From: a virus
Length of the DNA: 63,437 bases
IMG/VR virus record: IMGVR_UViG_3300033407_000011
Span: 1-63,437 of that record
Direction: 5' to 3' (one strand)
Below, piece by piece: positions 19,110 through 60,900 of this stretch. Made by a program: the position numbers and the translations under genes. Below the pieces are notes generated by a model, which ran no database searches, was not told the origin of the DNA, and saw only the letters and a program-made list of their open reading frames with translations. Each line of letters starts with the position of its first letter. Position 1 is the stretch's first letter.

Positions 19110-19418
19110 TCAACGGTAATACAATACCTGCAAGGTGGCACTAGCAGCCAGTTCAAGAAATTTAATTTCTGCCAGATCGCCATCATAAAACAGTTCAAAT
19201 TCAGGACCCACCTTGATTTGCAGGCCGTCCGTACTGGTCGGGTTATTGCCATCGTCCTTATACCGGACCGCTTGGGCTTCGGCCTGGATCCTCGCATACC
19301 TGGCGCCATCTGGCACCGTCAAGCCCTTGGCGGCGCTTAATGCGGTCACTTTTTCATAGCCCATCGGGGTCAACGGGCCAGGTTTTGAATAGTCCCCCAA
19401 ATCGTCTTTCTGGATCAT
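19110..19418 (-). CDS. hypothetical small protein downstream of portal
   Basis: 102 aa. ATGA overlap with the portal stop. Confidence 0.6.
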   Translation of the reverse strand: MIQKDDLGDYSKPGPLTPMGYEKVTALSAAKGLTVPDGARYARIQAEAQAVRYKDDGNNPTSTDGLQIKVGPEFELFYDGDLAEIKFLELAASATLQVLYYR

Positions 19419-21844: not shown

Positions 21845-21899
21845 CAATCACCCCTCATTTGCTCTGAAGTGTAATATAAATTTGTTGGTTTGTAATATT

Positions 21900-25520: not shown

Positions 25521-27059
25521 CTACAAAACTCTGGGGTTCGTGATACGGTCGTGCTTGATGGCGCCGCTCTTTAAATTCGGGCTGATGTTGATGGCAAAGG
25601 TCAACCCCACCGCATCCAGCCGGTTCGGGCTCTTGATGCCCTTGCTGCGCATGGTCTTTTTCGGGGTCAGCACGATCCGGCTACTGGAGTCGTAGGAAAA
25701 CGTCCGCGATATGGTTTCGCTGCGCAAGATGGGATCATCCGGTATTTCGCACGGCTCATCACTCAGCCACTCGCGGAAGCGGCCTATCATTTCATCACAC
25801 ACACGCATGTAGATGTGTTCATCCACCGCCCGTTCGCCCACCATCACCCGGTTGACCGGATAGCCGCGTTCACGTAACCGGTCGGCCACACCACTGCCAA
25901 TGCCAGTCGCATCCACATTAATGGCATCCGGTTCCCAACGGTCAGCTTCCAAGGCCACCCAGCCCACCAGTTCCATGGTATTCAGCCCATGCCTGCCAGC
26001 GACTCTGGGCACTCTGCGGCCTTGGCGGAAAGCCAGCGCGGCCTCATCTTCCACGCCATCGCTCGGATCCAGCCCCATAATCTTCGGCCCCCGGTTCTCG
26101 ATCAGTTCGCCTTTGGGGATGACAGCGCGATTGATCAGCTTGGCCGGGATCAGGGTCTGGCCTGTCACCCGCATGAAGGCTATCTCAGGGGTTGCCGGGT
26201 ATTCCTGATCAAAGAAGTTGATATCGCCCCGGAAGTCAGGACCGTCAATCTTGGCGCGACGCCAGACCAGGTGCTCCATGGTGCAGCCACGGTGCGCGTA
26301 GTTGTCCAGGTAGTCGATTTCTTCCGGTGTCGGTGCCCAGTCTTCGGGAATAGGCCGCCTATAATCAGGATCCCAGAACCACGGCACAAAGACCGCGATA
26401 TAGTCTCCCTTACTACGTATGGCATCTTCCCAGATGTAATAGAACTCGTTGTCCATGCCATTGCCAGTGCTTTCCAGGATGATTTCTGTCCCCGGGATGT
26501 TGGGGACAATTTGCCCCAAGGCCGCCATGTGATCGCGGGCTTGTGCCCAATAGGCTACCTCTGAACCATGGAAAAACTGGGCAGTCGCACTGCGGCCTGT
26601 GTCCTTGGCGCCCGCTGTGGCCACCAGATAACCGCTGTCCAGATCCCGGAAACTCAACTCCTTGGCATTGGCCTTCTTCGTGGCTGGTCGCAGCTCGTGC
26701 GGGCAATGGTTATGAAACCGCTCCACCATCTCAAAGATGTTGTTGGTCGCCTTGTCCTCATGCGTCAGGATAAAGGCTTTCTTGCCCATTTCCCCGGAGA
26801 CACGCCAGTAAAACCGGCCTTCGGTGTAAGTGCTGACCCCTTGTTGCCTGCCTTTCAGGACCAGGGCCCGCACCCAGCCCTTATCACTATACTGTGCCTC
26901 GATTTTGTTATGGATATAGAGTTGGGCTTTATTGGGATGAAACGCCCGTAATGGGCCTTCTCTGGGCCGGACCCAGAGACACCGTGGGGCGTAATACAAG
27001 AAATCACGCCGGAAGTGGATGAGATCAGCGAACTTGGGGCTGACCTGGACGCTACTCAT
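25521..27059 (-). CDS. terL: terminase large subunit
   Basis: 512 aa. The N-terminal ATPase region (LVLKGRQQGVSTY, Walker A-like) and a C-terminal nuclease-type region. ATGA-coupled to the upstream small ORF. Confidence 0.8.
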   Translation of the reverse strand: MSSVQVSPKFADLIHFRRDFLYYAPRCLWVRPREGPLRAFHPNKAQLYIHNKIEAQYSDKGWVRALVLKGRQQGVSTYTEGRFYWRVSGEMGKKAFILTHEDKATNNIFEMVERFHNHCPHELRPATKKANAKELSFRDLDSGYLVATAGAKDTGRSATAQFFHGSEVAYWAQARDHMAALGQIVPNIPGTEIILESTGNGMDNEFYYIWEDAIRSKGDYIAVFVPWFWDPDYRRPIPEDWAPTPEEIDYLDNYAHRGCTMEHLVWRRAKIDGPDFRGDINFFDQEYPATPEIAFMRVTGQTLIPAKLINRAVIPKGELIENRGPKIMGLDPSDGVEDEAALAFRQGRRVPRVAGRHGLNTMELVGWVALEADRWEPDAINVDATGIGSGVADRLRERGYPVNRVMVGERAVDEHIYMRVCDEMIGRFREWLSDEPCEIPDDPILRSETISRTFSYDSSSRIVLTPKKTMRSKGIKSPNRLDAVGLTFAINISPNLKSGAIKHDRITNPRVL

Positions 27060-40753: not shown

Positions 40754-41155
40754 ATGAGTGGATTGAGATCTTTTGTACAAATCCTTGGCAACTTGCGGCG
40801 CGGTCGTACCGAGTCCGAGTTGTCCGAGGCGCTGAGCAAACTGGTCGGCACCGTCCAGGAAACCGGTAAAGCCGGTCAACTGGTGCTGACCATTGATGTT
40901 CGGCGCATGAAAGGGGCGGCAGCGCATGTATTGCAGATTGCCGACAATATCAAGGTAAAGATGCCGGAACGCGACCGCGACGCTTCCATGTTCTTTGCCG
41001 ACGATGAAAACAACCTGCACCGTCAGGATCCGCGTCAGTATGATCTGATCCCGGAAGATGCGGACAAGACCAACGTCAAGGAGTTAGCGCAAAGCGTGCG
41101 GCCCAGATCATCAGGCTCCATGCCAATCGCGCTGGCCAGTTCATTGAATGCGTAA
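40754..41155 (+). CDS. hypothetical protein whose last 20 codons come from the right inverted repeat
   Basis: ATG at 40754 follows AAAGAGGA. The C-terminus SVRPRSSGSMPIALASSLNA is the antisense reading of the 35967..36025 sequence. Confidence 0.5.
   Translation: MSGLRSFVQILGNLRRGRTESELSEALSKLVGTVQETGKAGQLVLTIDVRRMKGAAAHVLQIADNIKVKMPERDRDASMFFADDENNLHRQDPRQYDLIPEDADKTNVKELAQSVRPRSSGSMPIALASSLNA
41093..41151. repeat. right arm of the perfect 59-bp inverted repeat
   Basis: Exact reverse complement of 35967..36025. It includes the ATG (41148) of the next gene. Confidence 0.95.
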
Positions 41156-41996
41156 ATACTACGACGAAGACGGCCATGAAGTGGTCGCACTGGCCGAACA
41201 GTTCATCGCGGAACTGGCCGCCAAAGGCATTCAGCCACACGTCATTGACAGCATCGAGCAGTTGGCAGCACCGTTGCTGGCTGTGCAGGAAGGTGTGAAG
41301 CTGGAAAGTCTGGAGCAGTATCTGCCACAACCGGTGCGGGTGAAGCAAACCCATATTCTCACCGCTGAAAAGAGTTTCATCGAGTACCTCAACCGGTTTA
41401 AAAACAGCGACAGCATTGTGATCGCACAACCGCAAGAACACACTTTCGGCTGCATTCTGGATTATCACGCAGCAGAAAGTTCACCGTCTGGCAAGCAGGT
41501 TACCCCGGCTTGGTGCGATCATACGTGCGTGCTTAAACTGGAACTCTCGAATGAATGGGACACTTGGCTGAAAATGAATAAACAGCCTTTCCAGCAAGCG
41601 GCGTTGTGCGACTTCATCCAGGAAAATGGGCCGGACTTTCTGCACCCGACTCACGCCGACATGCTGGAACTGGTGCAGAGGTTTGATGCCACCCAGGATG
41701 TCAGCTTCAAGTCCGCCATGCGTATGGAATCCGGCGATGTTGAATTGCGATATGAAACCAAGACCGCTGTACATGGGACTGTGCAAATACCGCAACAGTT
41801 TGAAATCAATATCCCGGTGTTCCAGCATGACAATGAGCGGGTGCCACTGAAAGCGTGGTTCCGGTACACCATCCGGGAAGGAGTGTTGATAATGCGCTAC
41901 AAGCTGCACCGCCCCGACAAGGTATTTGATAATGCCTTTGAAGCGGTGTGTGAAAACATCAAGGAAGAAACCGTATTGCCGGTGTATATCGCGTAA
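41148..41996 (+). CDS. DUF2303 (YfdQ-like) protein
   Basis: 282 aa. The overall pattern (SFIEYLNRFKN...CILDYH...WCDHTCVLKLELSNEW...) fits my recollection of the YfdQ family. Confidence 0.55.
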   Translation: MRKYYDEDGHEVVALAEQFIAELAAKGIQPHVIDSIEQLAAPLLAVQEGVKLESLEQYLPQPVRVKQTHILTAEKSFIEYLNRFKNSDSIVIAQPQEHTFGCILDYHAAESSPSGKQVTPAWCDHTCVLKLELSNEWDTWLKMNKQPFQQAALCDFIQENGPDFLHPTHADMLELVQRFDATQDVSFKSAMRMESGDVELRYETKTAVHGTVQIPQQFEINIPVFQHDNERVPLKAWFRYTIREGVLIMRYKLHRPDKVFDNAFEAVCENIKEETVLPVYIA

Positions 41997-42009
41997 CCAG
42001 CAGCATATT

Positions 42010-42041
42010 ACCCGCCCCACTCTCACTGAGGCGGGTCTTTT
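42010..42041 (+). terminator. candidate rho-independent terminator
   Basis: ACCCGCC (42010..42016) and GGCGGGT (42030..42036) form a 7-bp stem with a 13-nt loop, followed by CTTTT. Confidence 0.45.
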
Positions 42042-42051
42042 AAGGTGACTT

Positions 42052-42519
42052 ATGAGCAGACACAGAAAGAAAAAAAACAACTTGCACACTGAACAGTCGC
42101 AAAACGCTATCAAGCAGAATTTTCAATGGCCCACCTATCTGGTGGAATTGCCGCCCGAGAGTTGGAAAGACGAGAAAGCGCCGCCCAACCTGATCCGGGT
42201 ATTACGCTCCCGGAAATATCTGGTGCAGATCAATGAAATTACACCGGATAAATTATTAATGATGGGGATCAGTCGTATAGCCAACTTTAAGATTGACGCA
42301 AAGCTGGTGGATCACATTACCTGGCCGGAACTGCAAACCCTCAAGCGCGAGGCTGGCTATCACGATAAATGCGCCGTGGAAATTTACCCGCCAGACGGGT
42401 ATATCGCTGACACGGGCGCCCGGCATCTGTGGATTTACCTGCAAGGCGTGCCTTATTTCATGTTCGGGAAAGAGCAGTATATTGCCGATCAGCCAAAGAT
42501 TATTTTGCCGGGGGCGTAA
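42052..42519 (+). CDS. hypothetical protein
   Basis: 155 aa with a basic N-terminus and RBS AAGGTGA. Confidence 0.6.
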   Translation: MSRHRKKKNNLHTEQSQNAIKQNFQWPTYLVELPPESWKDEKAPPNLIRVLRSRKYLVQINEITPDKLLMMGISRIANFKIDAKLVDHITWPELQTLKREAGYHDKCAVEIYPPDGYIADTGARHLWIYLQGVPYFMFGKEQYIADQPKIILPGA

Positions 42520-42522
42520 GGA

Positions 42523-43293
42523 ATGACTATCGAATTACGCCATGGCCGCTATCAGGATGTGATGCACGATGTTATGTGTGATCACCTGATTACCGACCCG
42601 CCATTTTCCGAGCGGACTCACAGCGGCCAGCGTCACGGCAGGAAGGATCCGCGATATACCAAGGACAAATCTACCATCCTGTCCGCAAAAGGACTGCCGT
42701 ATGAACCGTGGACAGCCAAGGAGATTATCGAGTGTGTCCACTTCTGGCATGAGCGCACCCAAGGCTGGATGTGCATATTCACTTCACACGATCTGATTCC
42801 ACTGTACAGCAAGGTAATGAAACGGGCAGGCCGTTATGTCTTTGCGCCCATTCCCTGTATCCAAATGTACCGCAATGTCAGGCTGGCGGGCGATGGTCCG
42901 GCGAACTGGACAGATTACCTGGTCGTATCCAGGCCACGCACCATGCGGTTCTGGCGGGCGCTACCCGGTGTATATATTGGTGCTTCCCATGACCCCGGCG
43001 AGAATGCACTGGATCGCAGCAAACGCGCAGTGCCGGGCGGCAAACCCGTCTGGTTGATGCAACAGATTATCGAGGATTATTCAGATGGCAGCGACTTGAT
43101 TGCAGATTGTTGTGTTGGCGGTGGTTCTACATTAATCGCGGCAGCCTCACTGGAACGCCATGCCATTGGCGCCGAGAAAACCGCAAAGACCTATAAAAAA
43201 GCACTGCACAATATTTCCAAATTCAAGGCGGTTCCTCTGGAGTTGCAGGAAACCGGCCATATTCAGGATTTATATACCAATGCCAGCCTTTAA
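42523..43293 (+). CDS. DNA N6-adenine / N4-cytosine methyltransferase (beta-class motif order)
   Basis: LITDPPFS (motif IV) lies near the N-terminus. DLIADCCVGGGSTLIAAASLERHAIGAE (motif I) lies near the C-terminus. Confidence 0.75.
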   Translation: MTIELRHGRYQDVMHDVMCDHLITDPPFSERTHSGQRHGRKDPRYTKDKSTILSAKGLPYEPWTAKEIIECVHFWHERTQGWMCIFTSHDLIPLYSKVMKRAGRYVFAPIPCIQMYRNVRLAGDGPANWTDYLVVSRPRTMRFWRALPGVYIGASHDPGENALDRSKRAVPGGKPVWLMQQIIEDYSDGSDLIADCCVGGGSTLIAAASLERHAIGAEKTAKTYKKALHNISKFKAVPLELQETGHIQDLYTNASL

Positions 43294-43684: not shown

Positions 43685-44229
43685 ACGATTCAATGGTACA
43701 GAGCGCGGTGGCGCCGGAGCTTGGGAGCCACAGGGGGCATTCACACCCGAAGATAGACGCACACCCTGCCCGCGCTTCTGTACCTCCAGTTTGTCCGTAT
43801 TGCAACACCAATGCTGTGTTACTGGATCCAACGCCTGCCGAGGCTGGTGATTTGGCAGCTTATCCCTATAAAAAATATTATGGCCCGTTGTGGGTGTGCA
43901 GCCATTATCCAACTTGCAATGCGTATGTGGGTTGTCACCCTGGCACCACCATGGCCCTGGGCCGGCTGGCGGACAAGGAACTGCGGCTATTGAAATCACA
44001 AGTCCACGCCGTATTTGACCCGCTTTGGATGTATGAACATGCCATTCGCAAACGCCGTTATAGGCGTCGTGGCAACATGAAAAATATCATCCGCAATAAA
44101 TGGTATGAATGGCTGGCAGGGAAACTTGGGATCCCGGTAGAACAGTGCCATATCGGCATGTTTGATAACGACACCTGCCAGCGTGCCATTGAGATCTGTA
44201 AAAACCACAGAGGAAAGAGAACATGTTGA
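43678..44229 (+). CDS. DUF3268-like zinc-finger protein
   Basis: CPYCNTNAVLL...WVCSHYPTCNAYVGCHPGTTMALGRLADKELRLLKSQVHAVFDPLW matches my recollection of the DUF3268 pattern. Confidence 0.55.
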   Translation: MVDDSMVQSAVAPELGSHRGHSHPKIDAHPARASVPPVCPYCNTNAVLLDPTPAEAGDLAAYPYKKYYGPLWVCSHYPTCNAYVGCHPGTTMALGRLADKELRLLKSQVHAVFDPLWMYEHAIRKRRYRRRGNMKNIIRNKWYEWLAGKLGIPVEQCHIGMFDNDTCQRAIEICKNHRGKRTC

Positions 44230-44543
44230 TACTCAGCAGACGCGAAAATGAGAGTATTACGATTGGTGACAATATCACTGTCACGGTAACCAAGATCGCC
44301 CGCGACAATGTTGAAATGGTGATTACCGAGAATGGTAATCGTCACGTCGTTAATCGTGGCGTGAATGAAGTCGTGCCATTGACGGACGATATCCATATTC
44401 AGGTTACCAAGATTGTTTTCAATCAGGTGAAAATCGGGATTGATGCGCCCAAAAAGGTCCCGGTACACCGGGAAGAATTCAGGGATCGACTGATTAAAAG
44501 CGGTGAAGGTAATATCAGTTTGGGCGGTCGGCATGGCAGATAA
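44223..44543 (+). CDS. CsrA/RsmA-like RNA-binding protein with an internal partial duplication
   Basis: MLILSRRENESITIGDNITVTVTKIARDNVEMVI aligns to CsrA residues 1-34. VVPLTDDIHIQVTKIVFNQVKIGIDAPKKVPVHREEF aligns again to residues about 11-47. Confidence 0.7.
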   Translation: MLILSRRENESITIGDNITVTVTKIARDNVEMVITENGNRHVVNRGVNEVVPLTDDIHIQVTKIVFNQVKIGIDAPKKVPVHREEFRDRLIKSGEGNISLGGRHGR

Positions 44544-45630
44544 AAGCCGCATAGAATGGACAGAATCCACCTGGAACCCGGTCACTGGTTGCAGCAAGGT
44601 CAGCCATGGCTGCAAGAACTGTTATGCCGAACGTGACTGGGTGAGACTGTCCGCGCCACGCACACCACCGAATGTTTATACCGGACGTAAATTCACCGAT
44701 ATTATGTGCCACCCGGAACGTCTTGATCAGCCACTGCGCTGGACGAAACCGCGCATGATATTCGTCAACTCAATGTCTGATCTGTTCCATGAGAGTGTGC
44801 CGGATGAATTTATTGCGCAGGTATTTCAAATCATGGCGCAATGTATTGGTAAGCACATATTCCAGATACTCACAAAGCGCCCAGAGAGAATGATGAAATG
44901 GATCAATGCGTGTGGTAAATCAGAAACAGGTTACATAACTCACAACCGTCAGAATCCAAATGGATTCGATCCTGGCACTGGAATCATTGTGTCTTATCCA
45001 GAATACGAGCACTCGCACGGCTATACTAACTTTAAAAATGTTATCAGTGAAAACTGGCCGCTCCCCAACGTCTGGCTCGGTGTTAGCGTAGAAGATCAAA
45101 AGACTGCCGACGAACGTATCCCGCTGTTACTGCAAACGCCTGCTGCTGTCCGCTGGATCAGTGCAGAGCCGTTGCTGGGTGAAATTGATCTGACCGCGCT
45201 TGATCCGGACGGGGATAGTGAAATAAACGCATTGACTGGCCATACAGCCGGAGAGCAGGCCGAAGCATGGGGATGTAATATCTCCCGTTTCCATGACATA
45301 CCGCCATTGAACTGGGTGGTTTGTGGCGGCGAGTCCGGCCCACACGCACGACCATCACACCCGGACTGGTTCCGATCACTGCGCGATCAATGCAAGGCGG
45401 CGGGCGTGCCGTTTTTCTTTAAGCAATGGGGTGAATATTTACCATTTGAAGAACATGAAGAAAATATGATCAGGGATTGGAAATTAATGGATGCAAACGG
45501 AACAGTCGATATCCCTGATGGTCGCTGGCCTGATAGCGAATTGCGTGAAGTTGGAATTGAAAAACTCGGCAAAAAAGCCGCAGGCCGTCTGCTGGATGGG
45601 AAAGAACACAGCGAGTATCCCTATGGATAG
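44533..45630 (+). CDS. Gp37/Gp68-family (DUF5131) protein
   Basis: ATG at 44533. IEWTESTWNPVTGCSKVSHGCKNCYAE is the family signature. Confidence 0.7.
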   Translation: MADKSRIEWTESTWNPVTGCSKVSHGCKNCYAERDWVRLSAPRTPPNVYTGRKFTDIMCHPERLDQPLRWTKPRMIFVNSMSDLFHESVPDEFIAQVFQIMAQCIGKHIFQILTKRPERMMKWINACGKSETGYITHNRQNPNGFDPGTGIIVSYPEYEHSHGYTNFKNVISENWPLPNVWLGVSVEDQKTADERIPLLLQTPAAVRWISAEPLLGEIDLTALDPDGDSEINALTGHTAGEQAEAWGCNISRFHDIPPLNWVVCGGESGPHARPSHPDWFRSLRDQCKAAGVPFFFKQWGEYLPFEEHEENMIRDWKLMDANGTVDIPDGRWPDSELREVGIEKLGKKAAGRLLDGKEHSEYPYG

Positions 45631-48973: not shown

Positions 48974-51900
48974 TCAATTTGGAGTGAGTACCGTCTCCGC
49001 ATACCGGCGATTGAAGAATGCCTGGCGCTTCCGGATCAGGCTGTCAATATCATCAATCCGGCGCTTTTTCTCATCTGATGGCAGGATATCATTGGCCTGG
49101 ATATCACGGCGGCGCTTACGCAGATCCCGCAACTGGTTCCGGACCGACCGATCCAGTAGACGTAATCTGGCTTGCGGGCTCTGGATGGCTTTCAGGCGTT
49201 CCTCACCCTGGAGTTGTTTAATCTGCTTGTCCACATACTGCACGTCCATGGAACGCTCATAATACCGCTGGCTGATGGCATACTTGTTATCGTAACCGTA
49301 CAGCCGGCGCAACATAGGCACTTCCCGGACTTCGATTTGTTCGCCAGTCACAGCCTTGTGTGCCAGGTTGAACGAATCCATTACCACCCGCCCGGCAGAA
49401 CCCGTGGAGAAATCCACGAACACATCAACCCATTCCGGGGAGATATCAACAGCACCCGGGCGGATTTCATCACCACCGGAAATATCATTCAGGAACTTGG
49501 TAAATTCCTTCGAGACCTCACGGGCACTGGACCAGTGTTGCAGGTATTGTGGTTTGGCGGGTCCAAACGGGATCTCCTGCGGTTTCAATGGCCGTCCGGT
49601 CCAGTCCTTGTTTTCAGCTATCTGGACGAACGGATCCACCACGGTTGGTGCGAGAGTCTGCAGGAAGGTGGCATGACCCACCGGGTTAAAGGCTTCGGCA
49701 ATGGCGGCTCCTATCCGGCTGGCACTGTGCCATGCGTCAAAGCGTTCGCCCGTCATTAATTCGCCGAACTGCTGGCCGACCACATGCAGGGCGTTATAAC
49801 CCCAGGGCAGCATGAATTTGAAGATCGGTTCCTTCTCGCCCATGATGACCCAGTACCGCTCACGGATATGATCCGGCAGGGCGTCGTAATAGTTCTCTCC
49901 GTCGTCATCGTCACCCGCTGCTGCACGGTTGATGATATCCAATACGATGGCCACGCCAATGGTCGCCAAGGCCAGCCTGCGCCCTTTTTTGCTGGTCAGC
50001 ATGGCTTGCAGCATACGCACCGAACCCTGTATGGAGGCATTATAGAACAGGTACATGGCATTCAGGGTCGGTCCTGCCATACCACGGCGGTTAAAGTTGA
50101 CGGTCAGGTTCTTGGCCAGCGCTGCCGCACGGGTATCACTCAGCCCTAGTTCCACGGCTTTGCGGAAGGCGGCCAGACGGATCCCGTTCTCCACCACACT
50201 GTTATAATCATCAATAAAGTCCAGCAGCTTCATAAAGGCATTGCGGCCAGATTTGCCAGCCTGGATCCGTTTCATCTGGTCGGCCAGCTTATGACTGCGC
50301 TCGTTGATATCGCGGTAATGTTCAATCCAGCCCGTCTTACCACCTGCCAGCCGGAACCGCTCGGCCCAGCCGCCCCATTCACTGTGCCTGTCCCCTTTAC
50401 GCAGGTTGGCACGCAGTCCTTTCAGGGCGCCAGGCACCATTTTCAGAACACTCAGTTCCGCCTTGCTGAGTTCAGTGTCCGTCATGTTATACAGGGCGGT
50501 TTGCAGGTCACGGGCAAAATTTGAGATCACAAATTCAGGTGACCAACTGGTATTCAGTTGCGCCAGGAACCGGTTGAGCCCCAGCAGAACGCGAGTCAGC
50601 CGCCCGATATCACCATGATCCAGGTTCTTCATGGCTTTCAGGATACGCATACCCACTTCATTCTTTTGATTAAAGGTAATGGTATGCACTTGACCATCCA
50701 CCTTGACCTTGAGTTCATTATCATATTCACGCGGATCATTGAACCATTTGACTTCGCCATCCTTGACCGTGCCCATCTTCTTCGGCACATCGACGGTCCA
50801 GAAGGACGAATCCTTGTGTTTCTGGGCGAACTTCAGCAAGGCTTGCGCCACCCGGTTTTTCTCTGACCGGATGATCGAGGCTTCATATTGCGCCACTACA
50901 TTGACCAGCACATCCACTACGTCGCGGGTGGAACCCAGCCGGCGCTTGCTTTCCGGGCCACGAACACTGAATCCTTGACCACGGCTGGGCAGGGTGGCGT
51001 GCGCTTCATCCCGCTTTAAGGGGACATAGTGCTGATAGTTGGCCTGCCAGGCTGCGGCCATTTCCTCGGAAATGAGATCGCCCTGGATCAACAGCTTGAC
51101 ACGGGCAGCGTTGATTTCATCAATCAGGGTGCCAAAACGCTGCAAGGCGTCGTTGTCCCGGTGCTTGGCGAGGATAGACTCAGCCTCGGCGTCACTCATG
51201 CCGGACAGGGCAGTGTTGTCCTCACGCTCAGGATTGATGCGCTGCAAATATTCGTTGGCTTCGCTGGCATGACGGGCATGAAGCCATTCATCCAGTTCGG
51301 CCATGGCAAGGCCGGTCTTGCCTGCCATTTCCAGCATGGGTTCGATCTTGTCCCGGTTGAACCTGTCCAATTGTTCACCCGCCCGGCCTTGCCAGATGCT
51401 CTCGGCCATGTAGACGTCTTCATCTTCCGCGACACCACCCGTATCCTCCTGCAGGTGTTTCAGGTCAATGAACTTGTCCTGAATGACATAGCGGATGGGA
51501 TCCAGCCTGCGAGTGGCATGTTCGAGGGTCTGGGCAAACTCGCCATGGGTGGGGGCTGTAGCAGCAGTGGTATCTCGGCTATACAGCAGGTTATTATCTA
51601 ACGCATCAATCCCAATTGAATCAAGGTCTGATACCAGAGACCCCGCAATACCTTGCGCCAGAAGTGGATGCTTTTGAGTCGTACCGGGTACATATTGACC
51701 TGCGACCCGACCAAGTTTCTCCACCCACCCGGCGTAGTCCGATTGTAAAACGGATGCGGTAATAACTGCCCTTTGTGCCGTAGTATCAGCAATGCCCATT
51801 CCAACCGGGAACGTGGATATAAGTCGGATAACTGGTCTTCCCTGCGGATTAATTCCAGTGGCGAAATGTTTTGCAGTGCCTTGAACATAATATTGCCCAT

Positions 51901-54900
51901 CCTTAAAAATGATATTTTTCAAGTCCGGAAGGCGGCGCTGTGCCAGTGCAGCCGAGGCCAGCAGCATCGCCTCCAAGTTATTAAAGTATAGTTGGCGTTT
52001 CTCGAAACTGCTAGTAGTATTTGTCTCAGGCCGCCACAACACTACCTTTATCTGCTCCAATCGTTCCCGGATATGCCAGTTGCGATCAGAAAACTCAGAA
52101 TGCCGGTCTGTTTCACGGGTGACATCCGCCAGTGCGGTCTGCTCATCCAGTTGGTTGTACATATCGTCCGGCAATAACCCGATAAACTGCCCGATATGTG
52201 GCTCCAGATGTTCACTGGTGCCGTATTTCAGCATGGAGGAGATCATGGCTTCGGTGCGGCGCAGACGATTAATAACAGTAATTGTACGATCCGGAACCAG
52301 CACCTTATTATTGTTACGTGCCCATGCCATGGCAATCTGGTACGCCCTTGCGCCACCACCACCACGGCGGCGGCCACCTGGGCTGAATATTTCCGCAAAG
52401 GGTGCCTTAGTGTCAGGATTATGGATGGTCACTATGGGTGTGGCGTACTGGCCTATCTCATCCGTTTTTGGCACCTTAATAACGAATATGGGCGGCTGGG
52501 TCTGTTCTTCCACTGTCCAGTCATAACCAGCAGCTATGTCCTGTACCAGGGTTTTTAAGTCCTTTGCATCGCTGGGCGGCGCCTGGAACGCTTGGTCACC
52601 ACGGGCAATGTAACTCTGCCACACATCAGCCAAGCGGGTGCGGTTGATGCTGGCTGCGTCCTCTGCAGGCTGGGCAGGCACGGGCGGTCGATAGGAAACT
52701 TCTTCACGTGTGGTTTGCCGGATGGCAGCCACAGCCATGCTCACCAGCATGTTCGGATCTAGGTTGCGAATTAAACCCAGTTGATACAGGAACCGTTTGA
52801 TAGCGGCCAGGATCCGTTTCACCAGCGGCAGTTCCTGATTGGCGCGTTCCTGCACCATGTAAGCAATGACTTCCTCGGTATAGTTACTGCGCGATGTATC
52901 GTCCGGCACCTTCAATGCCGCATTGGCAGCGGCCTCATTCAGTTTGCCATTCACGCCACGCTTGGCCAGTTTGAGTGCGGCGGCTACATGCGCCTTGGTC
53001 TGGATCCAGAGTTTATCACCCAGCATCTGCGGCATCCCGTAATGAACGCCAACCTCATGCAGTAACACGGCATAGGCATTATTGATATCAGCCTCATTCA
53101 GGCTTAACCGGTTGGCGATCAGGAAGGTCTTGCCCGCCTTGCGATCAAACCAGCCAGCCACGTCTCCGGCATTTTCTGCCAGCGCCCAGTTCGGCAGTTC
53201 GCGCTTGGTGGAAATGATCTTGAACCGGCCTGAGTCCATTAACTGCTTCCAGGCTTTATGTCCCAGCTTGTCACGCAAGTATTGTTCTACGGCCTCACCG
53301 CTTGGACCAGTGCTGGTATCCATGACCGGCGCTTCAGCCCCCCGGCTCATCAGCATGTCTTCATCGGGTTCGCCGGCAATCTCCACGACCGGATCATTCT
53401 TGATGGTGATCTTGAACGGCTCCATCTTGCCCAGCGGGAAAAAGAACCGGGCAGTATAGTTAATGCGTTCCGAGATCAGGCCGCGATCCTGTAAATTGGC
53501 TGACCAGCGGTAACGATCAGCGGCGGGCAGGATCAGTTCCATGCGTTGCTCACCGGAGACCATACGCTTGGCAATCTGCCAGCCATTGGCCAGGATCAGG
53601 GTCTTACCGTCCTTCATCACCGCATTGTGCAGTTCCGCAGGCAACATCTGGACGCTGGCACGTTCAGCACCCAGGTTTTTCAGTACGGCATTAATCTGGG
53701 CGCTGGGGATCTGCATCCCGATAAACCGTTCATGGCTGTCAGTGGTCTGGGCACGCACGACGCGCACGCTGCGATCCCCTTCATGGACAATCCGGCTCCA
53801 GATGGGGAGGACGGCACCCACAATCATGTGCGTGTCGGCGGACTTGATCTTGGGTGCTGTTTCAAAAGCCTCCTGCCAGTGAGTGGCGGCACTCTCCAGC
53901 GACTCGATTTGTTTCCAGTTGCCTGCCATGTAATAGGTGCCATCATGATACTTATGCTGGACAACCTCGCTGTATTCGACCGCCTTGCTGCCTGTTGGGT
54001 CATACCGGCGCAGTTGTTTCACGACCTTACCTTCCTTGGTGGTCTTGTCCACAGTCGGTAGGAAGGCGGCAAACTTGTTGGACAGTTCATTTACCGCATA
54101 CACGGCTTCATGCAATACCTTGCGGCGTTCAGCCAGATCCAGAAATTCGGTGAAGGTCATCGGGTGCAATGGTGTTTCTACATTCAAACGGACATACTTG
54201 GTGACTGCGCTTGTCCCTTCATGCGTATGTACAATACGTTCCTCTTTTTTCTCGACCCGATCCCCGGTGACATTCTCGATGCCGACATCAAAATCGCCGA
54301 TTTCACGGTGGTAATCCACCACCTGCTGCAACCGGTGAAAGAAAGCCTCAAAGACCTCATTTTGACGCGCTGTTTTCAGTGACAGGATCCGGTTCAGGAA
54401 TTGCTGAATGGTCGGGGTCTTCTTGTCAGAAACATTCCCTTCTTCATCCCGCAAATTGATCCACATTTCATGCTCCAGCGTAGCAATACTGAGGCCCTCC
54501 ATGCCTTCCAGTTTGTTCCTGGCCAGATCCCGCACCATGCCACGCAGGGCTTCTTCGGAATACACGGTTTCCAGATTATGCTCGGCGCTGAATATCCCCT
54601 GCGACCCGGCTTCACGCTGGCCTTTAGTGAGCGCACCCAGTTGATCCAGGCGCCTGGCCACTGAGGAAATAAACCGCAGGTGCCCCTTGAGATCGGTGGT
54701 TACCAGCACATAATGCGGGGCTTGTTTCTGATTGGATCGGTGCGTCCGGCCAAAACCCTGCACGGCATTATCAGCACGCCAGCCAGGTTGCACCAGATAA
54801 TGGAACCGCTTGCGCTGGTTCTTACGCCTGAGATCCGCATGAAAGTCCTGGCCGGTACCGCCTGCATCGGAGAACACCATGATCTTTTTCTTGTCCTCCA

Positions 54901-57900
54901 TGAATTGGGAAATATCGGCACCCACCGCAGTCGCACTGCGCCTCTCCCAAGCCTTTTTTCCTTTCTTTGTGACCAGACGACGGGATCTGCCGGTGACCTC
55001 AGCCACCTGGCTCACGCCAAAATGATCAATAATCTGATCCAGCGGGCCGTGAGGTATAGCAATCGTTGCGATCATGTCCAGCATCTGGTCGCGGATGGCC
55101 ACGGCCTCGGCAGAGATCACCGGGTTGCCCTGCGAATCCTCCACCAGTGTCATGATCTTGTTGCCGTTACTGTCAACTGTTTCCTCGTATTTATGGATCG
55201 GAAAGGAAGATTCCAGAAACTGCATGATGGATTGGCGCGGGGTAATGTCCAGTTCATCCAGTGAGATCCCCTCATTGGCCGCCTGTGCGGCAGCGCGTTC
55301 GGTTTGCGCTTCATTGGTATTCACCAGTTGCAGCACGATACTGTGTTCTTCCTCGAGGCGTTTCTCAATGTCCTCGATCAGGGATGGCATCTGCATGGAA
55401 GTCAATACCTGGTTAAAAAACCGCTGGTGCGCTCCCCAAAAGGCGGACAAGGCGGATGATTTTGCATTCTTGGCCTTGACCTTGCCTTCCTCATTGACAG
55501 CACCAATCGCTTCCAGTGCCACACCAATGTTCTGTAATATGACTTGCCACCCTTCGGCCATCACATCGTACATTTCAACCTGTTCCGGCGTGAGTGCGTG
55601 GGTCAGTTGGCCGTAAGTCACATCATGGTAGGACAGGGAACGGGCGCCATACATACCCAGTGCTTTCATGTCCTGGGCGACCAGTTCCATGGCGGCGACA
55701 CCCTTGCTGCTGATAGCTTCGATAAAGGCCACGTTGTCTGCAAACGGCGTGCCTTCACCCCAGAGCCCAAGGCGGCTGGCATAGCCCAGATTATTGACCT
55801 CGGTGGCACCTGTGGCAGATACATATAAAATCCGCGCCTGTGGCACCTTGGTCTGCAACTCCACGCCAGTCAGGGCTGTTTGTGAGGGTTTGGTCCGGCC
55901 ACGTTTGCCTTTCATGGCAATCACATTTCCTAATTTATGGGCTTCATCAAACGCGATCACGCCATCAAAGTCTGGTCCGAGCCAGTCTGCAATCTGCTCC
56001 ATGCGGGATTTACCGCCGCTTTTCGTGGATGCCTGGCGCAGGGTGCCGTAAGACACAAACAACACGCCTTCCGTCAGAGTGATCGGATCTTCCGGTTTCC
56101 AGCGTTTAATGTTGGTAATGATCTTGTTCGCATCTTCCCCGGTGACACTGTTCCAATCCCGCCGTGCCAAGTCCAGTAATTTGTCATCCTTGGTGATCCA
56201 GATATGGCGCTTCCGGCCACGGCGGATGTTATCCGTCATCACCCCAACAACTTCACGCGCCTTGCCGAGACCAGTGTTGTGATGCACCAAACCGCCAGCA
56301 ATGTAGTTCTCCGGCCCTGGTACCCACATATCATAGAATTCAGCACGTCCTGATAATTCTATGGACACAATCCTGTCCCATCCCCCATAATATTGACATG
56401 AGGAAACCACGAAACTCGATCCCAGAGCAGGCGGTACCGCAGGTAATCGCAGATTATCAGGCTGGTGTTCCAACGACTGAACTTGCGAATCGTTATGGCG
56501 TGACACCGCCGACTGTGGCCTGCCTTCTAATGAAATATGGCATTCAGATTCGTTCTCGTTCTGAGATAAACGCGCTGCGTGCGCCTGTAGATGATGAGCG
56601 TCTGCGCCAGTTGAATGATGAAGCGCAACTGAACCACCAGCAAATTGCCCATGAGTTGGAAGTATCGACGGCGACTGTTGAGCGTCGTCTACGAGCTCTG
56701 GGTTTGAAATCAAAGAAGGGTCGCGGCTCTCCAATGGAGAAAAATTACTTTTGGAAAGGTGGCCAGATGACGGACGCCGATGGCTATATTCTCCTGAAAT
56801 GTCCTGACCATCCGCACAAGAATGCACAGGGATATGTGCGTGCTCATCGCCTTGTAATGGAGCAAATTCTTGGCCGTTATCTGGATCGTCTTGAAGTCGT
56901 ACACCACATTGACGGAGATACGCAGAATAACGTCCCAGACAATCTTCAGGTGTTTGCCTGTAATGCGGATCATCTTCGGCATGAATTGACTGGGCGGACG
57001 CCGAATCATTCTCCGGCAGGGCTTCGGCGGATGCGAGAAAATGCCCAACGCTTAAACCGTCTACGATACGCATCCAGCCGGAAGGTGTGAAAAATTTATG
57101 ATTTACCGTAACTTGTACTGAACGGCCACTTTGCATAACGACCCGATACAGATCATCCTCGCCTTTTTTGAATGGCGCTTGAGCATTAAAAGCCTCGAAA
57201 CCATCAGCAGTCAACGATAGCACCCTGATTGGCCTGCCAGCCTCAGCCAATGTCTTGATAGGCGTTTCTATCCCAGTGTCTGGGTTAAGGATCAGCGTAT
57301 CTCCAGCAACACATCCGTCGCCAATGAAGTAGCCGCGCCGCTCTCCATTGGGCAGCATTTTATCGTGGGCATCGCCCGCCCGGATGATTTGTTCAATCTG
57401 GGCATTGGACAAGGCGCCTGACTCAATGGCTTTCTTCGGCAGGTTAGGCACATAACTGGTCGATGGTGGCGTGACCGTGGCCATGGCCGCAGATTCGACC
57501 AGGGTGCCAGGGTGTGGCTTGGAACCCGGCAGTGTGATAAATGGCTGATACGCATCGAATACTGCGTCCGTCAATGCCTGATGCTGCATGATATTTTCTA
57601 CGCGATCCAGTGCAGCATAATCGCTGGTGATTTCAATGTTCTTGTTGGTAGTTTTGCCGTTATCACCGTTTTGCGTCAGTTCATTGGCAAACTGGATGGC
57701 ATACGGCCTGACCCCTTCCCCGAAATTACGGATCAGGAATTTAAAGAATTCTTTTAAGGACTTGCCAGCGGCCTTGAATTCAGACCAGGCTTTCTCGAAA
57801 TGGGGTTTGGCACGGGCATAGGTCAGATCATCAAAGCCCGCAGGGAAGGATTTTAGGGCGTTGCCGCCGAATAATTCATAGAGACCGGTCAGTGCTTCGG

Positions 57901-60900
57901 ATACCCCTTTGGCGCCGTGATCAGCCGCCTCAGTCAGGATATCGGTCAGTTCTCGACCATGGCCTCCTCGATCCAACTGCGCACCGCTACCTGGGCGCCG
58001 TCCAGTGCCAGCACTTCCAGGTCGCTGGCCTCCAGTGGGTTCAACTCCGGATCTTCCAGTATCTTCATCACCACCTTGGGCGGCAACGTCTCCAACTGGT
58101 TCAACGCCTGCTCCAGCAGGGAATTGACCGGTGGCGGTTCCAGCCGCGCCAGTTGTAGCAGGTACAGCGTCTCCGGCCCGGCTTCCGTACCCAGCAGTTT
58201 CTTGGCGGCCTGATTGATCGGAGTATTGTTCTCCGGGATAAACTCTGTCATTGCGTATCTCCTCCAGGGCTTCTATCGTATTGGACAAGTTTTCCAGTGC
58301 ATTATTCGCCTTGAATTCAGTAGTAAGTATAATGCTTGTAGTAGGTCCTGTCTTGTCAATTATCACAATTTGTTTATCAAACGTGGTACCAAACTTACGG
58401 TAACCCTCGCCGGACAGGCCGATATTGGCACGGACATTGTAACGGCGCTGGATTTCACGCCAGAAACCACTGGCTTGCGCCTTGTTCAATGCCAGTCCTT
58501 CACCCACCAGCGCGACCAGCCGGCCACCTGGCGCCAACCGGGTCAGCGCCTGCTCGATATGGTTCATGGACACACTACTGTCGCGGCTCCCAGGCACCCG
58601 TCCTGCCGTTGCAGTAAAGGGTGGGTTCATAATCACGACAGTCGGTACTTCTTCCGCTGCCAGAATGTCATGCAGGTGCGCAGCATCCTCCCGGGTCGGG
58701 TGTTCTGTGGTCAGCATTTCCAGCAGATTGGCACGGCGATCACTCAGTTCATTCAGGATCAGTGAATTCGCGCCAAACATCTGCGCCAATGTGGCCAGAT
58801 TGCCCGTGCCGGCACTGGGCTCCAGCACAATATCATCCCGGTTCAAATTAGCTGCCCGTGCCATCACATAGGCGATGGTATGAGGCGTGCTGAATTGCTG
58901 GAATTCCATCTGTTCCTCAGTCCGCTTGGTCTGGGTGGTCAGATTATTGATGGCGCTATTCAGTAAGGACAGTTCTGTTTTGGCCGTGGTCATATCCGAT
59001 AACTTGATATCACGAACAACAGCCTCGTTTGTTAATAACCACTGGTTAAAGGCGATCTCCATAGCGTCATACGCATCACGCGGGGTATAGACGCCCTCAG
59101 CCTGCGTGCCGCCATACGCCTGATCCGCCAGTTTGAACAAGTCCTGCCACGATAATGGTGTCTTGAATCCACGCTCGAACAAGGCCGCTACCAGCTTCGT
59201 TGCCGGTGTCTTTTGATCCGTGCCAGTGTTCTCCTGCTCCGCTTCCTCGGTTTCGGACAGGGCCTCATCAAACAGGTTTTCCAGATCCTCGGTGCTCAGA
59301 TCCTGGATATCATCCGGTGGAGCAAAAGTGGGGCTGTCTACCATGGATTCGCGCAGTTGACGGACTTCTTCTTCAGCCTTTTCCTGTGCGGCTTTGTCCT
59401 TTAACGCCTTGGCCTCGGCTTCAATCTTGGCCTCCGATGACCTCATCACTTTATTGCCAGCGGGCAATCCATTTTCAATCTTGTCCAGTGCTTCCAGCAG
59501 TTCCCCGATGTGTTTTTTGATCGGGTACTGGTCTTCCGCCACCTTGATGACCGGGTAACCGTCTTCGCCGATAGCAATGTCTTTCAGGAACTGTTCAAAC
59601 AATTCATTGAATGCCTGGCGTTCCTCATCAACCGGATAGGGTGTACCGCGATAACCGGCACTCTTGGTGACCTTGCCATCTGCCACCCAGTCACTGACCA
59701 GATAGGTGTCCATGCCACCCAGCGTATCAAAGACAAAGGCTTCCGCAGCGCGGGCGAACATTTCCCGCTTATTGCCCCAGTAGTCCTTGCCCAACGCGTT
59801 GGCGTGTTTGAAATAATCTGTTTGGGAGCCAGCAGAACTCCAGGCATCACCCCTTTCACCATTCCTGACAAAACCATTCAGACCACTACGCAACCGGGTA
59901 ATGGCATGACGTGCATTCCACAGCCGGCCATTGTGTTTGCTGCTTGTCCAAAAGGTATGGCCGGAGAGAAAATCTGCAACACGTGCCGCCATTTTCTCCG
60001 GTGTGGTCAGTTGATAACGCAACAACCCGATGAACTGCTGCAGATACGGGTGTAATGTTTCATCGTCATGCGCCACCTGCTGGCCGTGGTGTTTGTTCCG
60101 GAGCATGTAATCAATGGCATGGAAATACTCATGATTCACGGTGCCATCGCCGTGGGTATTGGTCAGGTTGATAACGGGCGTGACCTCACCGGTCGGGTTG
60201 TTTTCCTGGTCCAGTACCGGGTGACGATTGCTGTAATGGGCGGCATGGCGGCCATGCCCCAGAGCACCAAAGGCCAGCACCAGGCGGTTACCGAACCCGA
60301 TCTGCGCCAGCTCCCAGCCCAGTTTCTCCGCCAGATCCATGAACGCGTCATAGGCATAGTTACTGTGATCCTGTAATTGTGTGGACGTGACGTAGTTGCC
60401 GACCGTAATCCCCTTGAATCCAAACGTGGTCTGTAACTCCTCCAGCGTGATGTTCTTGCCTTTACGGTGATCGCGCAGCCCTTCCCGTTCTACCCGGTCG
60501 AATTTGGGACGTATCAGTTTGTTGACAGCGCCGCCGCGCTTGGCGGCTTGATCGTCGTCGAACCGGTAGGTAATAGATTTGGCAACCCGTTCTGCGGCAT
60601 GTTCCGAGTCACCTTCCACCTTCATCAGGTAACTGCGGTAACCCTTAAACACATCTTCCACGGTACGCATGTTATAAAAATATTCATGCGCATAATTGTT
60701 CATCGTATTGACGTACTCGGTAGCCGCATCCCGGACTTCATCCAGCCTTTTCTGCCAGCCTTCATTTTCTACGCTGGATTTACTGATCCGGCCTTCACTT
60801 TTATTGCTGGTATAGACATAACCCTCCAGCATGCCCGCCGGGTCTTTGTAGTTATACCCGGTGATTTTCCGTGAGACCCACTGTTTCGGCAGGGATAATT

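Follow-up and report, generated by a model that had tools for sequence, protein, structure and literature searches.

A phage gene at positions 44223..44543 (+) of the 63,437-nucleotide stretch analysed here (the window; IMG/VR virus record IMGVR_UViG_3300033407_000011) encodes a 106-aa CsrA protein that is probably a self-complemented, single-chain pseudo-dimer, monomeric and with a single site for GGA-containing RNA. The strand pairing, monomeric state, RNA specificity, targets and biological role in this reading are those which we infer. The gene itself is real and is under purifying selection in both halves, because the identical coding sequence is present in five metagenome loci and its dN/dS is 0.086.

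A CsrA homologue with an internal duplication

The product had originally been described as a CsrA homologue with an internal partial duplication, and both elements of that description are upheld. In the profile alignment proposed as a check, the Pfam CsrA family (PF02599) matched the protein in two stretches at 87.3 bits (E 6.7e-25), well above the curated cut-off of 27, which places it within the CsrA family. The PHROG 9500 entry, 'CsrA-like regulator', also matched (E 1.3e-18), as did CsrA, RsmA and RsmE chains in the PDB, with a best E of ~3e-9. Positions 3-49 of the Pfam profile correspond to residues 42-88, the second copy, and phmmer aligned residues 42-92 to RsmA (7yr6), while a local CsrA HMM aligned by its positions 1-34 to residues 1-34 in the N-half and by its positions 5-54 in the C-half. 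Self-alignment of residues 3-34 with residues 42-73 scored 51 (BLOSUM62) compared with 21.7 +/- 4.3 for shuffled sequences, and 0 of 2000 shuffles reached that score.

The anatomy of the duplication departs from the original prediction in several respects. A spacer of about 17 residues had been proposed, followed by a repeat of the β2-β5/helix part; the second copy begins at about residue 39-42, leaving a spacer of only ~2-7 residues, and the duplicated segment is β1-β4. The chain had also been described as holding one β1, two central sheets and one β5. The single β5 stands, but there are two β1-equivalent strands, the second of which (residues 39-46) is degenerate and closes the first sheet.

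The N-terminal partial copy, delimited by HMM and AF2, spans residues 1-36 (44223..44330, +) and comprises β1-β4 without β5 or helix, with AF2 strands at residues 2-7, 11-14, 18-25 and 29-36. Its β1, MLILSRR (residues 1-7; 44223..44243, +), is marked by AF2 strand 2-7 and by conservation across the family, and is predicted to form the first half of the single RNA-binding surface. The junction TENGNRH (residues 35-41; 44325..44345, +) is modelled by AF2 as a tight turn from β4 into the second β1, with only residues 37-38 left unstranded between strands 29-36 and 39-46. The C-terminal copy (residues 39-95; 44337..44507, +), defined by Pfam, phmmer and AF2, is near-complete, with strands β1'-β5' at residues 39-46, 50-52, 58-65, 68-74 and 81-84 in AF2 and an α-helix at residues 88-95. 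It opens with the degenerate second β1, NRHVVNRG (residues 39-46; 44337..44360, +), placed from the family columns and AF2, which on its sequence we read as a structural strand with no role in RNA contact; an arginine is kept here at the R6-equivalent position (R45), unlike in most family members. The segment GIDAPKKVPVHREEF (residues 72-86; 44436..44480, +), picked out by family conservation, covers the β4'-β5' loop, β5' and the start of the helix and is predicted to supply the second half of the RNA-binding surface. A C-terminal tail, GNISLGGRHGR (residues 96-106; 44508..44540, +), is of low confidence in both models (pLDDT ~50).

The residues of CsrA that contact RNA are thus present once per chain, as M1-L2-I3-L4-S5-R6-R7 and G72-I-D-A75-P76...V81-H82-R83-E84-E85. 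The protein is not the usual single β1-β5-α chain of 60-75 aa, having 106 aa and nine predicted strands plus a helix, and with a sole β5/R44-equivalent per chain the sequence anatomy and the prediction do not give a homodimer with two identical RNA surfaces.

The gene and its locus

The coding sequence runs from an ATG start to a TAA stop, the latter included in the coordinates, and both the ORF list and the sequence give a product identical to that quoted in the original prediction. It is preceded by a Shine-Dalgarno-like sequence, AGAGGAAAGAG (44209..44219, +), identified from the sequence, with a GAGGA that ends 8 nt 5' of the ATG; this element, which contains GGA, sits within the 3' end of an upstream DUF3268 gene whose TGA stop at 44227-44229 gives a 7-nt overlap with the start of the CsrA gene. 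The downstream neighbour is a DUF5131/Gp37-Gp68 (PF07505) gene (44533..45630, +; PHROG 2045, E 2e-112). Its ATG at 44533, agreed by the gene calls in L002-L006, confirms the 11-nt overlap with the CsrA gene that had been noted at the outset. The overlap takes in the last 8 nt of the tail segment and the CsrA stop codon, and the two genes are probably translationally coupled. A portal gene at 19415-21847 and a large terminase gene at 25521-27059 bear out the phage context, and no tRNA genes were found in the window.

The identical coding sequence came from five metagenome loci from independent samples; the look-up covered 10 contigs carrying the protein, of which five loci were fetched. The dN/dS of 0.086 was measured against the allele in L001, which is 87% identical at the DNA level. 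Between these two alleles dN was 0.054 and dS 0.22 in the N-half, and dN 0.048 and dS 0.94 in the C-half. The one close relative found was P0002.

This phage is known from metagenomes only. Neither the locus, searched by megablast against GenBank phages, nor a 12-kb block, searched against every complete Escherichia coli genome, gave a match, and a scan with the single protein across 185,579 species genomes was dominated by ordinary CsrA genes, with no close relative and no indication of a host. A portal search returned metagenomic relatives only, at no more than 60% identity; the nearest portal matches by tblastn were in Achromobacter phage CF418P1 (47%) and Stx phages (39%).

The 1.5x family

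The protein had been treated as singular, yet it proves to be a member of a diverse family. The survey for the same duplicated architecture that had been suggested was carried out as an exhaustive HMMER scan of 50%-identity cluster representatives, and 53 of the best 147 matches have a layout which we refer to as '1.5x'. This is defined as an N-terminal β1-β4 without β5, a short linker, and then a degenerate β1 with an intact β2-β5 copy, within a total length of ~80-125 aa, the members aligning end to end. The query falls within this definition, as its residues 1-~90 align as a single stretch with dozens of the representatives, and by domain coordinates it is classed with the 53 others and has the same asymmetric conservation. 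P2-like prophages carry relatives, as does Pseudomonas phage vsMR, for which a cultured host exists, and the 1.5x group is widespread and phage-associated. MT836129 ('Bacteriophage sp.') was considered as a deposited 1.5x example and was rejected, as it proved to be a bacterial flagellar locus (FlgL-FliW-CsrA) encoding an ordinary CsrA of 72 aa.

Conservation across 55 members falls on two separate parts of the chain. In the first β1, M1 (100%), L2 (98%), L4 (90%), R6 (100%) and R/K7 (83%) are kept, and in the last β4-β5 region the same is true of G72 (98%), A75 (90%), P76 (96%), R83, which is the equivalent of R44 in CsrA (100%), and E85 (92%). In CsrA numbering, G33, A36, P37, R44 and E46 of the C-half are retained at 90-100%. 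At least 90% of the family N-halves show only gaps where β5 would align. The second β1 is quite different; the R6-equivalent is arginine in 14% of members and leucine in 38%, in 67-92% of members the region could not be aligned with the CsrA HMM, and hydrophobic residues alternate at positions 43, 45 and 47. As judged from these alignments, each chain retains just a single β1 and a single β5 set of RNA-contact residues. The linker is variable, and 8-27 residues separate the counterparts of positions 36 and 49.

When the halves were compared with one another, the nearest half was of the same kind for 47 of 54 N-halves and 49 of 54 C-halves; the duplication is therefore old and has been maintained. 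The neighbouring genes, in contrast, differ between 1.5x lineages, even in a 90%-identical variant, and a conserved two-gene module was rejected as both upstream and downstream neighbours vary between lineages.

Predicted structure and mode of action

Two AF2 models were made of the single chain. With an alignment of ordinary CsrA sequences, pLDDT was 84-92 over residues 1-85 and nine strands were formed, and with an alignment of the family only, pLDDT was 91-95 over residues 1-80 (pTM 0.69) with those strands and, in addition, a helix. The fold is predicted to be one compact nine-stranded domain. One half of the model superposes on CsrA/RsmE chains at 0.8-1.0 Å over 45 residues, and unnamed phage proteins in BFVD match the whole model (for example TM 0.73/0.87, 1.4 Å over 84 columns). 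These two models, together with the conservation of one β1 and one β5 throughout the family, support the earlier suggestion of an asymmetric or pseudo-dimeric binder.

Each five-stranded sheet of the ordinary CsrA dimer combines β2-β4 from one subunit with β1 and β5 from its partner, which lie on either side (PMC7652899). The strand pairing proposed here, a β4-β1' hairpin and β1 placed beside β5', was deduced from the strand order and this published topology. An ancient internal tandem duplication of β1-β4 would have given the order β1-β2-β3-β4 / turn / β1'-β2'-β3'-β4'-β5'-α, with one polypeptide providing both 'subunits' of the dimer. Sheet Y would consist of β5'-β2-β3-β4-β1', in which the hairpin links β4 and β1', and sheet X of β1-β4'-β3'-β2', in which the slot of the absent first-copy β5 would be vacant; the exposed β2' edge of sheet X could mediate oligomerisation. 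The conserved β1 (L2, L4, R6) would lie beside the conserved β5' (V-H-R83-E-E) to create one canonical GGA-RNA surface. No site is expected at the opposite edge because β5 is absent and the second β1 is degenerate, and as only one RNA site can be formed, a monomeric, monovalent CsrA is predicted.

The RNA targets of such a protein would be lone A(N)GGA motifs, usually within Shine-Dalgarno regions or hairpin loops, and by occupying them it could prevent or change the translation of mRNAs of the host, the phage or both at an early stage of infection. Since two-site bridging would be impossible, less avidity-based capture by multi-site sponge RNAs is expected, and since the chain would complement itself, mixed dimers with host CsrA are not. 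Plasmid RsmQ and other phage RsmA homologues offer an analogy that makes the host global regulator a plausible target. A search of the window for a sponge RNA found no Rfam families at gathering thresholds. The motif ACARGGATG, allowing up to one mismatch, occurs 45 times in the window against 31.9 +/- 5.3 expected, a weak enrichment, and the only exact copy falls within a small gene and does not coincide with a start codon.

Comparison with known CsrA-type systems

Canonical CsrA, RsmA and RsmE (PF02599; PDB 1Y00, 2JPP, 1VPZ, 7YR6) have the β-strand elements of the phage protein in common and share its RNA-contact residues, namely L2, L4 and R6 in β1, GxxAP, and V-H-R-E-E in β5. They are obligate homodimers of 60-75 aa chains with two identical RNA surfaces that can bridge two GGA sites, whereas the phage protein, at 106 aa, has nine strands, among them a single β5 and a single conserved β1, and is predicted to fold on its own with a single RNA surface. 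The β1/β5 RNA surfaces of CsrA, the role of L4 and dual-site bridging are described in PMC7652899, and R44 is indispensable to RNA binding by CsrA, RsmE and RsmQ (PMC7652899; PMC9928087).

A functional parallel may be drawn with the engineered heterodimer of wild-type and R44A CsrA (Mercante et al. 2009, as described in PMC7652899), which, according to that account, binds RNA without two-site bridging and gives incomplete repression of glgC. Like the predicted phage protein, it has one functional RNA surface per folded unit. It is, however, a two-chain laboratory construct made by point mutation, whereas the asymmetry of the phage protein is natural, lies within one chain and results from deletion of β5 and the helix; unlike the construct, this one-chain form has been kept by selection in a phage-associated family.

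In RsmN an α-helix is inserted between β2 and β3, and the protein is a homodimer with two sites. RsmN/RsmF (PDB 4KJI, 4K59) likewise represents a rearranged CsrA fold and was the top Foldseek match by E-value, but its superposition on the phage model is poor (rmsd 9.8-11.2 Å in Foldseek for 4KJI and 4K59). A helix inserted in the manner of RsmN/RsmF is absent from the phage protein, as DSSP finds no helix before residue 88 in either model.

Full tandem 2x and 4x CsrA chains, such as P0003 (136 aa), P0121 (155 aa) and P0129 (310 aa), emerged from the same search as the 1.5x family and are also multi-unit polypeptides. They are built from complete β1-β5 copies, usually with the helix, joined by linkers of 10-30 residues, and because the copies are complete two or more sites may persist; the first copy of the 1.5x form, by contrast, is without β5 or helix. 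The phage protein is not a 2x fusion of two complete copies, since its first copy covers HMM positions 1-34, as compared with 1-57 twice in the 2x proteins.

Homologues of CsrA borne by mobile elements and reported to rewire host regulation include plasmid RsmQ (PMC9928087) and phage RsmA (PMC8450108), and according to Campa et al. (2021, PMC8450108) the sequences of phage RsmA/CsrA proteins closely resemble those of their bacterial counterparts. These share with the 1.5x protein their carriage by mobile elements and a presumed purpose of reprogramming host post-transcriptional control. RsmQ heterodimerises with host Rsm proteins, whereas the 1.5x form is predicted to be monovalent and insulated from such mixing.

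Alternative explanations

The conservation pattern demands only that an N-half pairs with a C-half, whether within or between chains, and it would be satisfied equally by a domain-swapped homodimer in which the N-half of each chain pairs with the C-half of its partner. With a pair of pseudo-dimer units and a pair of RNA sites, such an assembly would act like a bivalent CsrA or a still larger one. CsrA-family proteins are obligate intertwined dimers (PMC7652899), family linkers reach from 8 to 27 residues, and the existence of 2x and 4x chains indicates that multivalent single chains are tolerated. We nevertheless regard this arrangement as unlikely, as AF2 gives a 2-residue turn between β4 (29-36) and β1' (39-46) and a compact single-chain fold (pLDDT 91-95) that is shared by the BFVD monomer models of relatives, and an intramolecular hairpin is the simplest closure. 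A different kind of pairing underlies the original suggestion that the protein could poison the host CsrA dimer, with the extra half-domain or an exposed edge strand trapping host subunits in inactive mixed assemblies. In two-hybrid assays plasmid RsmQ does form heterodimers with the RsmA and RsmE of the host (PMC9928087), and a host β5 or edge strand might dock on sheet X, which is without β5. Yet the chain holds every strand needed to complement itself, which leaves poisoning structurally unnecessary as well as unsupported; the invariant residues, R6 and R44, are RNA-contact residues and therefore indicate selection for RNA binding and not for a protein trap; and because host CsrA dimers are interdigitated, capture of a subunit would need to occur during folding. 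A dominant-negative role is accordingly judged very improbable.

Two further readings concern what, if anything, the protein regulates. Its position within an early operon, overlapping its neighbours by 7 nt and 11 nt and with GGA in its own Shine-Dalgarno sequence, would suit a specific phage autoregulator whose single site controls one or a few phage mRNAs, such as those of coupled neighbours, and which leaves the host Csr regulon essentially unaffected. A monovalent protein fits a single dedicated operator, and one known CsrA target requires just one site (PMC7652899). On the other hand, neighbours vary between 1.5x lineages, the 90%-identical variant included, so that no cis partner is constant; a GGA within a Shine-Dalgarno sequence is not a specific signal, and motif enrichment is weak (45 vs 31.9 +/- 5.3). 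We think this autoregulatory role quite unlikely. Partial tandem duplications do arise easily and P0002 is the sole close relative, as might be the case if the duplication were accidental or in decay and the protein a pseudogene-like form of an ordinary phage CsrA with no distinct function. That explanation has been largely refuted already, and is exceedingly improbable, given a dN/dS of 0.086 with the N-half also constrained, the layout and asymmetric conservation shared by dozens of divergent members and the confident predicted fold.

Significance

CsrA/RsmA proteins are among the main post-transcriptional regulators in bacteria, and phage CsrA genes are already known. No relevant description of a CsrA in tandem, fused, single-chain or pseudo-dimer form emerged from searches of bioRxiv and open-access full texts. 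In the CsrA-family review by Sobrero & Valverde (2020, PMC7366521) the members are homodimers of 65-75 residues, and the words 'tandem' and 'fused' are absent. Searchable reviews and annotations label such proteins 'carbon storage regulator' or give them no name, with the 1.5x architecture unmentioned. The 1.5x form would add an architecture beside the full 2x and 4x tandem forms.

The understood mechanism of CsrA, including dual-site bridging and cooperative multi-site capture by sponges, rests on a symmetric dimer with two surfaces, and the question of what a single surface can do has so far needed engineered wild-type/R44A heterodimers. If the single-chain, single-site reading is true, a naturally selected one-site phage CsrA would be a ready-made probe of single-surface function, and a small, monomeric, sequence-specific RNA binder would be an attractive part for synthetic translational control. 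It would also suggest that mobile elements benefit from a CsrA that is unmixed with host subunits and untied from host sponge RNAs.

More broadly, we put forward as a tentative and still doubtful proposal that phages keep a natural monovalent CsrA, unable to mix with that of the host, which either escapes CsrB/RsmZ-type sponges or caps sponge sites singly, and that the 1.5x form is a new structural class of the CsrA superfamily. In the first case, collapse of the dimer into a single polypeptide and loss of one RNA surface would give the phage a GGA-binding repressor freed from the avidity-dependent capture by CsrB/RsmZ-type RNAs through which the host protein is controlled; in the second, sponge sites capped one at a time would release host CsrA. 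Either would constitute a previously unrecognised viral route to overtake, or uncouple from, the Csr/Rsm network.

A CsrA gene with an internal repeat

The gene at 44223..44543 (+ strand) runs from ATG to TAA and encodes a 106-aa product that matches the Pfam CsrA profile (two stretches; 87.3 bits, with the cut-off at 27), PHROG 9500 ('CsrA-like regulator') at E 1.3e-18, and solved CsrA, RsmA and RsmE chains at E values down to 3e-9. Its internal repeat scores 51 against 21.7 ± 4.3 in shuffled sequences (0 of 2000 shuffles as high) and is, by this measure, well beyond chance; the phage CsrA homologue with an internal partial duplication put forward in the original prediction is thus borne out. 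A local HMM made from ordinary CsrA sequences, used to map the copies, aligns residues 1–34 with CsrA positions 1–34 (β1–β4) and residues 44–93 with positions 5–54, while under the Pfam profile the second match already starts at residue 42. We place the start of the second copy at about residue 39–42, which shortens the spacer from the roughly 17 residues first proposed to a few, and the chain has two β1-type strands rather than one. We refer to this layout, a β1–β4 fragment followed by a near-complete copy (strands marked with primes), as 1.5x CsrA. By its sequence and its RNA-site residues the protein is placed in the CsrA superfamily, although in sequence anatomy and predicted fold it departs from both architectural hallmarks of CsrA, the lone β1–β5–α chain and the symmetric homodimer with two sites.

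Five fetched loci, taken from independent JGI and Logan samples, carry the identical coding sequence, and a look-up read 10 contigs with the protein, the longest contig carrying it being 63,465 bp. A second allele of equal length (P0002, in locus L001) has 87% DNA and 90% protein identity, and dN/dS between the two is 0.086, with dN 0.054 and dS 0.22 in the N-terminal half and dN 0.048 and dS 0.94 in the C-terminal half. As dN is below dS in each half, the extra half-domain is not decaying, and the gene is judged to be real and constrained.

A family of 1.5x CsrA proteins

A word-indexed search recovered P0002 as the only full-length relative. HMMER, run exhaustively over 1.84 billion representatives, returned many proteins of 80–125 aa whose alignment with the query runs end to end as a single stretch. 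Sorted by domain coordinates, the top 147 representatives include 53 with the 1.5x layout, 52 full CsrA–CsrA tandems, three with three or four copies and 32 ordinary CsrA. The window protein is on these alignments a family member and not a singleton. The nearest neighbour of an N-half is another N-half in 47 of 54 cases, and that of a C-half another C-half in 49 of 54, from which it follows that the duplication is old and the architecture maintained.

Other arrangements are also found in public data. Complete tandems of about 120–175 aa include P0003, P0121–P0124, P0127 and P0136, among others; P0129, P0142 and P0165 (282–310 aa) have four profile stretches each, and for P0203 (275 aa) the exhaustive scan gives three and the local HMM four. 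P0140 (106 aa) is another asymmetric variant, in which a first copy with β1–β5 and no helix (HMM 1–49) precedes a second without β1 (HMM 8–57), leaving one complete β1/β5 pair only, and suggests several routes to a one-site single chain. P0025 (133 aa) joins CsrA to a C-terminal cold-shock domain (PF02599 + PF00313), giving two RNA-binding modules per chain.

Among 50,697 deposited phage records the 1.5x form was confirmed only in Pseudomonas phage vsMR, where the gene is unannotated. A second candidate, MT836129, was rejected as a bacterial FlgL–FliW–CsrA locus. The stretch concerned (MT836129.1 3123-9416, reverse complement), from a GenBank 'Bacteriophage sp.' of human faeces, encodes consecutively a 523-aa flagellar hook-associated-type protein, a FliW-like protein and an ordinary CsrA, and it looks bacterial rather than viral because this gene row is typical of a Firmicutes flagellar locus.

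Conservation and predicted structure

Both halves of 55 members were aligned to the CsrA HMM, and the family alignment was also read directly. In the N-half M1 (100%), L2 (98%), L4 (90%), R6 (100%) and R/K7 (83%) are conserved, and the β5/helix positions are gapped in at least 90% of members. In the C-half G33 (98%), A36 (90%), P37 (96%), R44 (100%) and E46 (92%) are conserved; its β1 region is unalignable to the HMM in 67–92% of members, and at the position corresponding to R6 38% of members have Leu and only 14% Arg, with an alternating hydrophobic pattern retained. In the CsrA dimer the β2–β4 strands of each subunit sit in a sheet between β1 and β5 contributed by its partner, and each RNA surface pairs β1 of one chain with the adjacent β5 of the second, L4 and R44 being critical (PMC7652899).

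AlphaFold2 with an alignment of ordinary CsrA gave nine strands (pLDDT 84–92 over residues 1–85), and with full-length family members only, pLDDT 91–95 over residues 1–80 and pTM 0.69, with predicted strands at 2–7, 11–14, 18–25, 29–36, 39–46, 50–52, 58–65, 68–74 and 81–84 and a helix at 88–95. One half of the model fits single CsrA/RsmE chains (2JPP, 5Z38, 1VPZ, 2BTI) at 0.8–1.0 Å over 45 residues. The structure comparison found no PDB chain covering the whole model. RsmN and RsmF, with their rearranged CsrA fold, are the closest structural precedent, but lack of their defining feature sets 1.5x CsrA apart and they superpose poorly on the model (~10–11 Å). Several unnamed phage proteins of 81–106 aa in BFVD share the whole-chain fold, among them A0A6G5YEX0 (TM 0.73/0.87, 1.4 Å over 84 columns).

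A probable self-complemented CsrA

From strand order and published CsrA topology we deduce that one sheet would be ordered β5'-β2-β3-β4-β1' and the other β1-β4'-β3'-β2', the position of the first-copy β5 being vacant, and that β4 and β1' would form a hairpin of adjacent antiparallel strands, in keeping with the models' 2-residue turn. The conserved β1 + β5' surface would lie on one edge, and the opposite edge would be unable to make a site. We consider it probable that 1.5x CsrA is a self-complemented, monovalent CsrA, which would recognise single GGA motifs in a CsrA-like manner and repress or remodel translation, and would be unable to bridge two sites. Full repression of glgC and similar targets depends on bridging, as does cooperative capture by multi-site RNAs, and the engineered wild-type/R44A CsrA heterodimer is the closest functional analogue (PMC7652899). 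Mixed dimers with host CsrA paralogues, as made by the plasmid protein RsmQ (PMC9928087), would not be expected, because the 1.5x chain should need no partner.

Other readings appear less likely. The chain could form a domain-swapped homodimer with two RNA sites, which we think unlikely, and slightly more doubtful is a dedicated phage autoregulator, with which monovalency is compatible but for which there is no fixed cis partner in support. It is more improbable again that the protein traps host CsrA in a dominant-negative manner, as the invariant residues are those that contact RNA and the chain would be self-sufficient. An accidental duplicate in decay is very improbable, since both the selection on the gene and the family's breadth contradict it.

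Genomic context and significance

The phage genome (~63.4 kb) encodes a portal, a large terminase and a methyltransferase. AGAGGAAAGAG, which is Shine–Dalgarno-like, lies just ahead of the CsrA ORF; the end of the DUF3268 gene upstream, with its TGA, overlaps the ATG end of the CsrA gene by 7 nt, and the downstream PF07505/DUF5131 (Gp37/Gp68) gene starts at 44533, confirming the 11-nt overlap reported in the original prediction. L001 shares the DUF5131 gene and has a different, 209-aa gene directly upstream of CsrA, the DUF3268 gene being one further upstream. Further upstream in the window's early operon lie genes for an N6/N4 DNA methyltransferase and DUF2303 and DUF7694 proteins (42523-43293, + strand, and neighbours 41148-42519), a block kept in L002 and L003. 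A 4667-aa ORF (48974-62977, − strand) occupies ~22% of the genome; Pfam on an identical product gives InPase, LPD1, AAA_34 split by Intein_splicing, Helicase_C_4, LPD37 and LPD38, which identifies it by domain content as a 'polyvalent protein' with an intein in the helicase/ATPase region.

Members with retrievable context lie in the early/replication module of P2-like prophages (L026–L028, L030 and the IMG/VR locus L007), in the order GPA replication protein, small ORF, 1.5x CsrA, 316-aa protein. In L029 an ordinary 64-aa CsrA gene (8407-8601) follows 83 nt downstream of a 107-aa member (8001-8324), on a contig that also has an ANTAR response regulator, a hybrid histidine kinase and phage lysis genes (Glyco_hydro_108). 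No neighbour gene was conserved across the 1.5x-carrying lineages compared. A 7-nt start/stop overlap, ATG-YTR-A, in which the TGA or TAA of the preceding gene falls within the Met-Leu-Ile codons, recurs in the window (44223-44229), L026 (8001-8007), L007 (6001-6007) and L030 (1716-1722); L001 is an exception, with a 23-nt overlap of gene calls. Since the same overlap is common to the window phage and the P2-like lineages despite unrelated upstream genes, it suggests that translational coupling has been used repeatedly.

CsrA genes on phages and plasmids are already documented (PMC8450108, PMC7366521, PMC9928087), but tandem or fused forms are absent from the CsrA-family review of Sobrero & Valverde (PMC7366521), and our searches, which covered open-access full text and bioRxiv, turned up no account of such forms, whether 1.5x, full tandem or three/four-copy chains. 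An Rfam scan of the window found no RNA, and enrichment of a CsrA-site-like motif there is weak. Repression of host defences such as CRISPR-Cas has been proposed for phage RsmA homologues (PMC8450108). An early role in infection, or one in lysogeny, would be consistent with the position of 1.5x CsrA in an early operon and its close coupling to adjacent genes.
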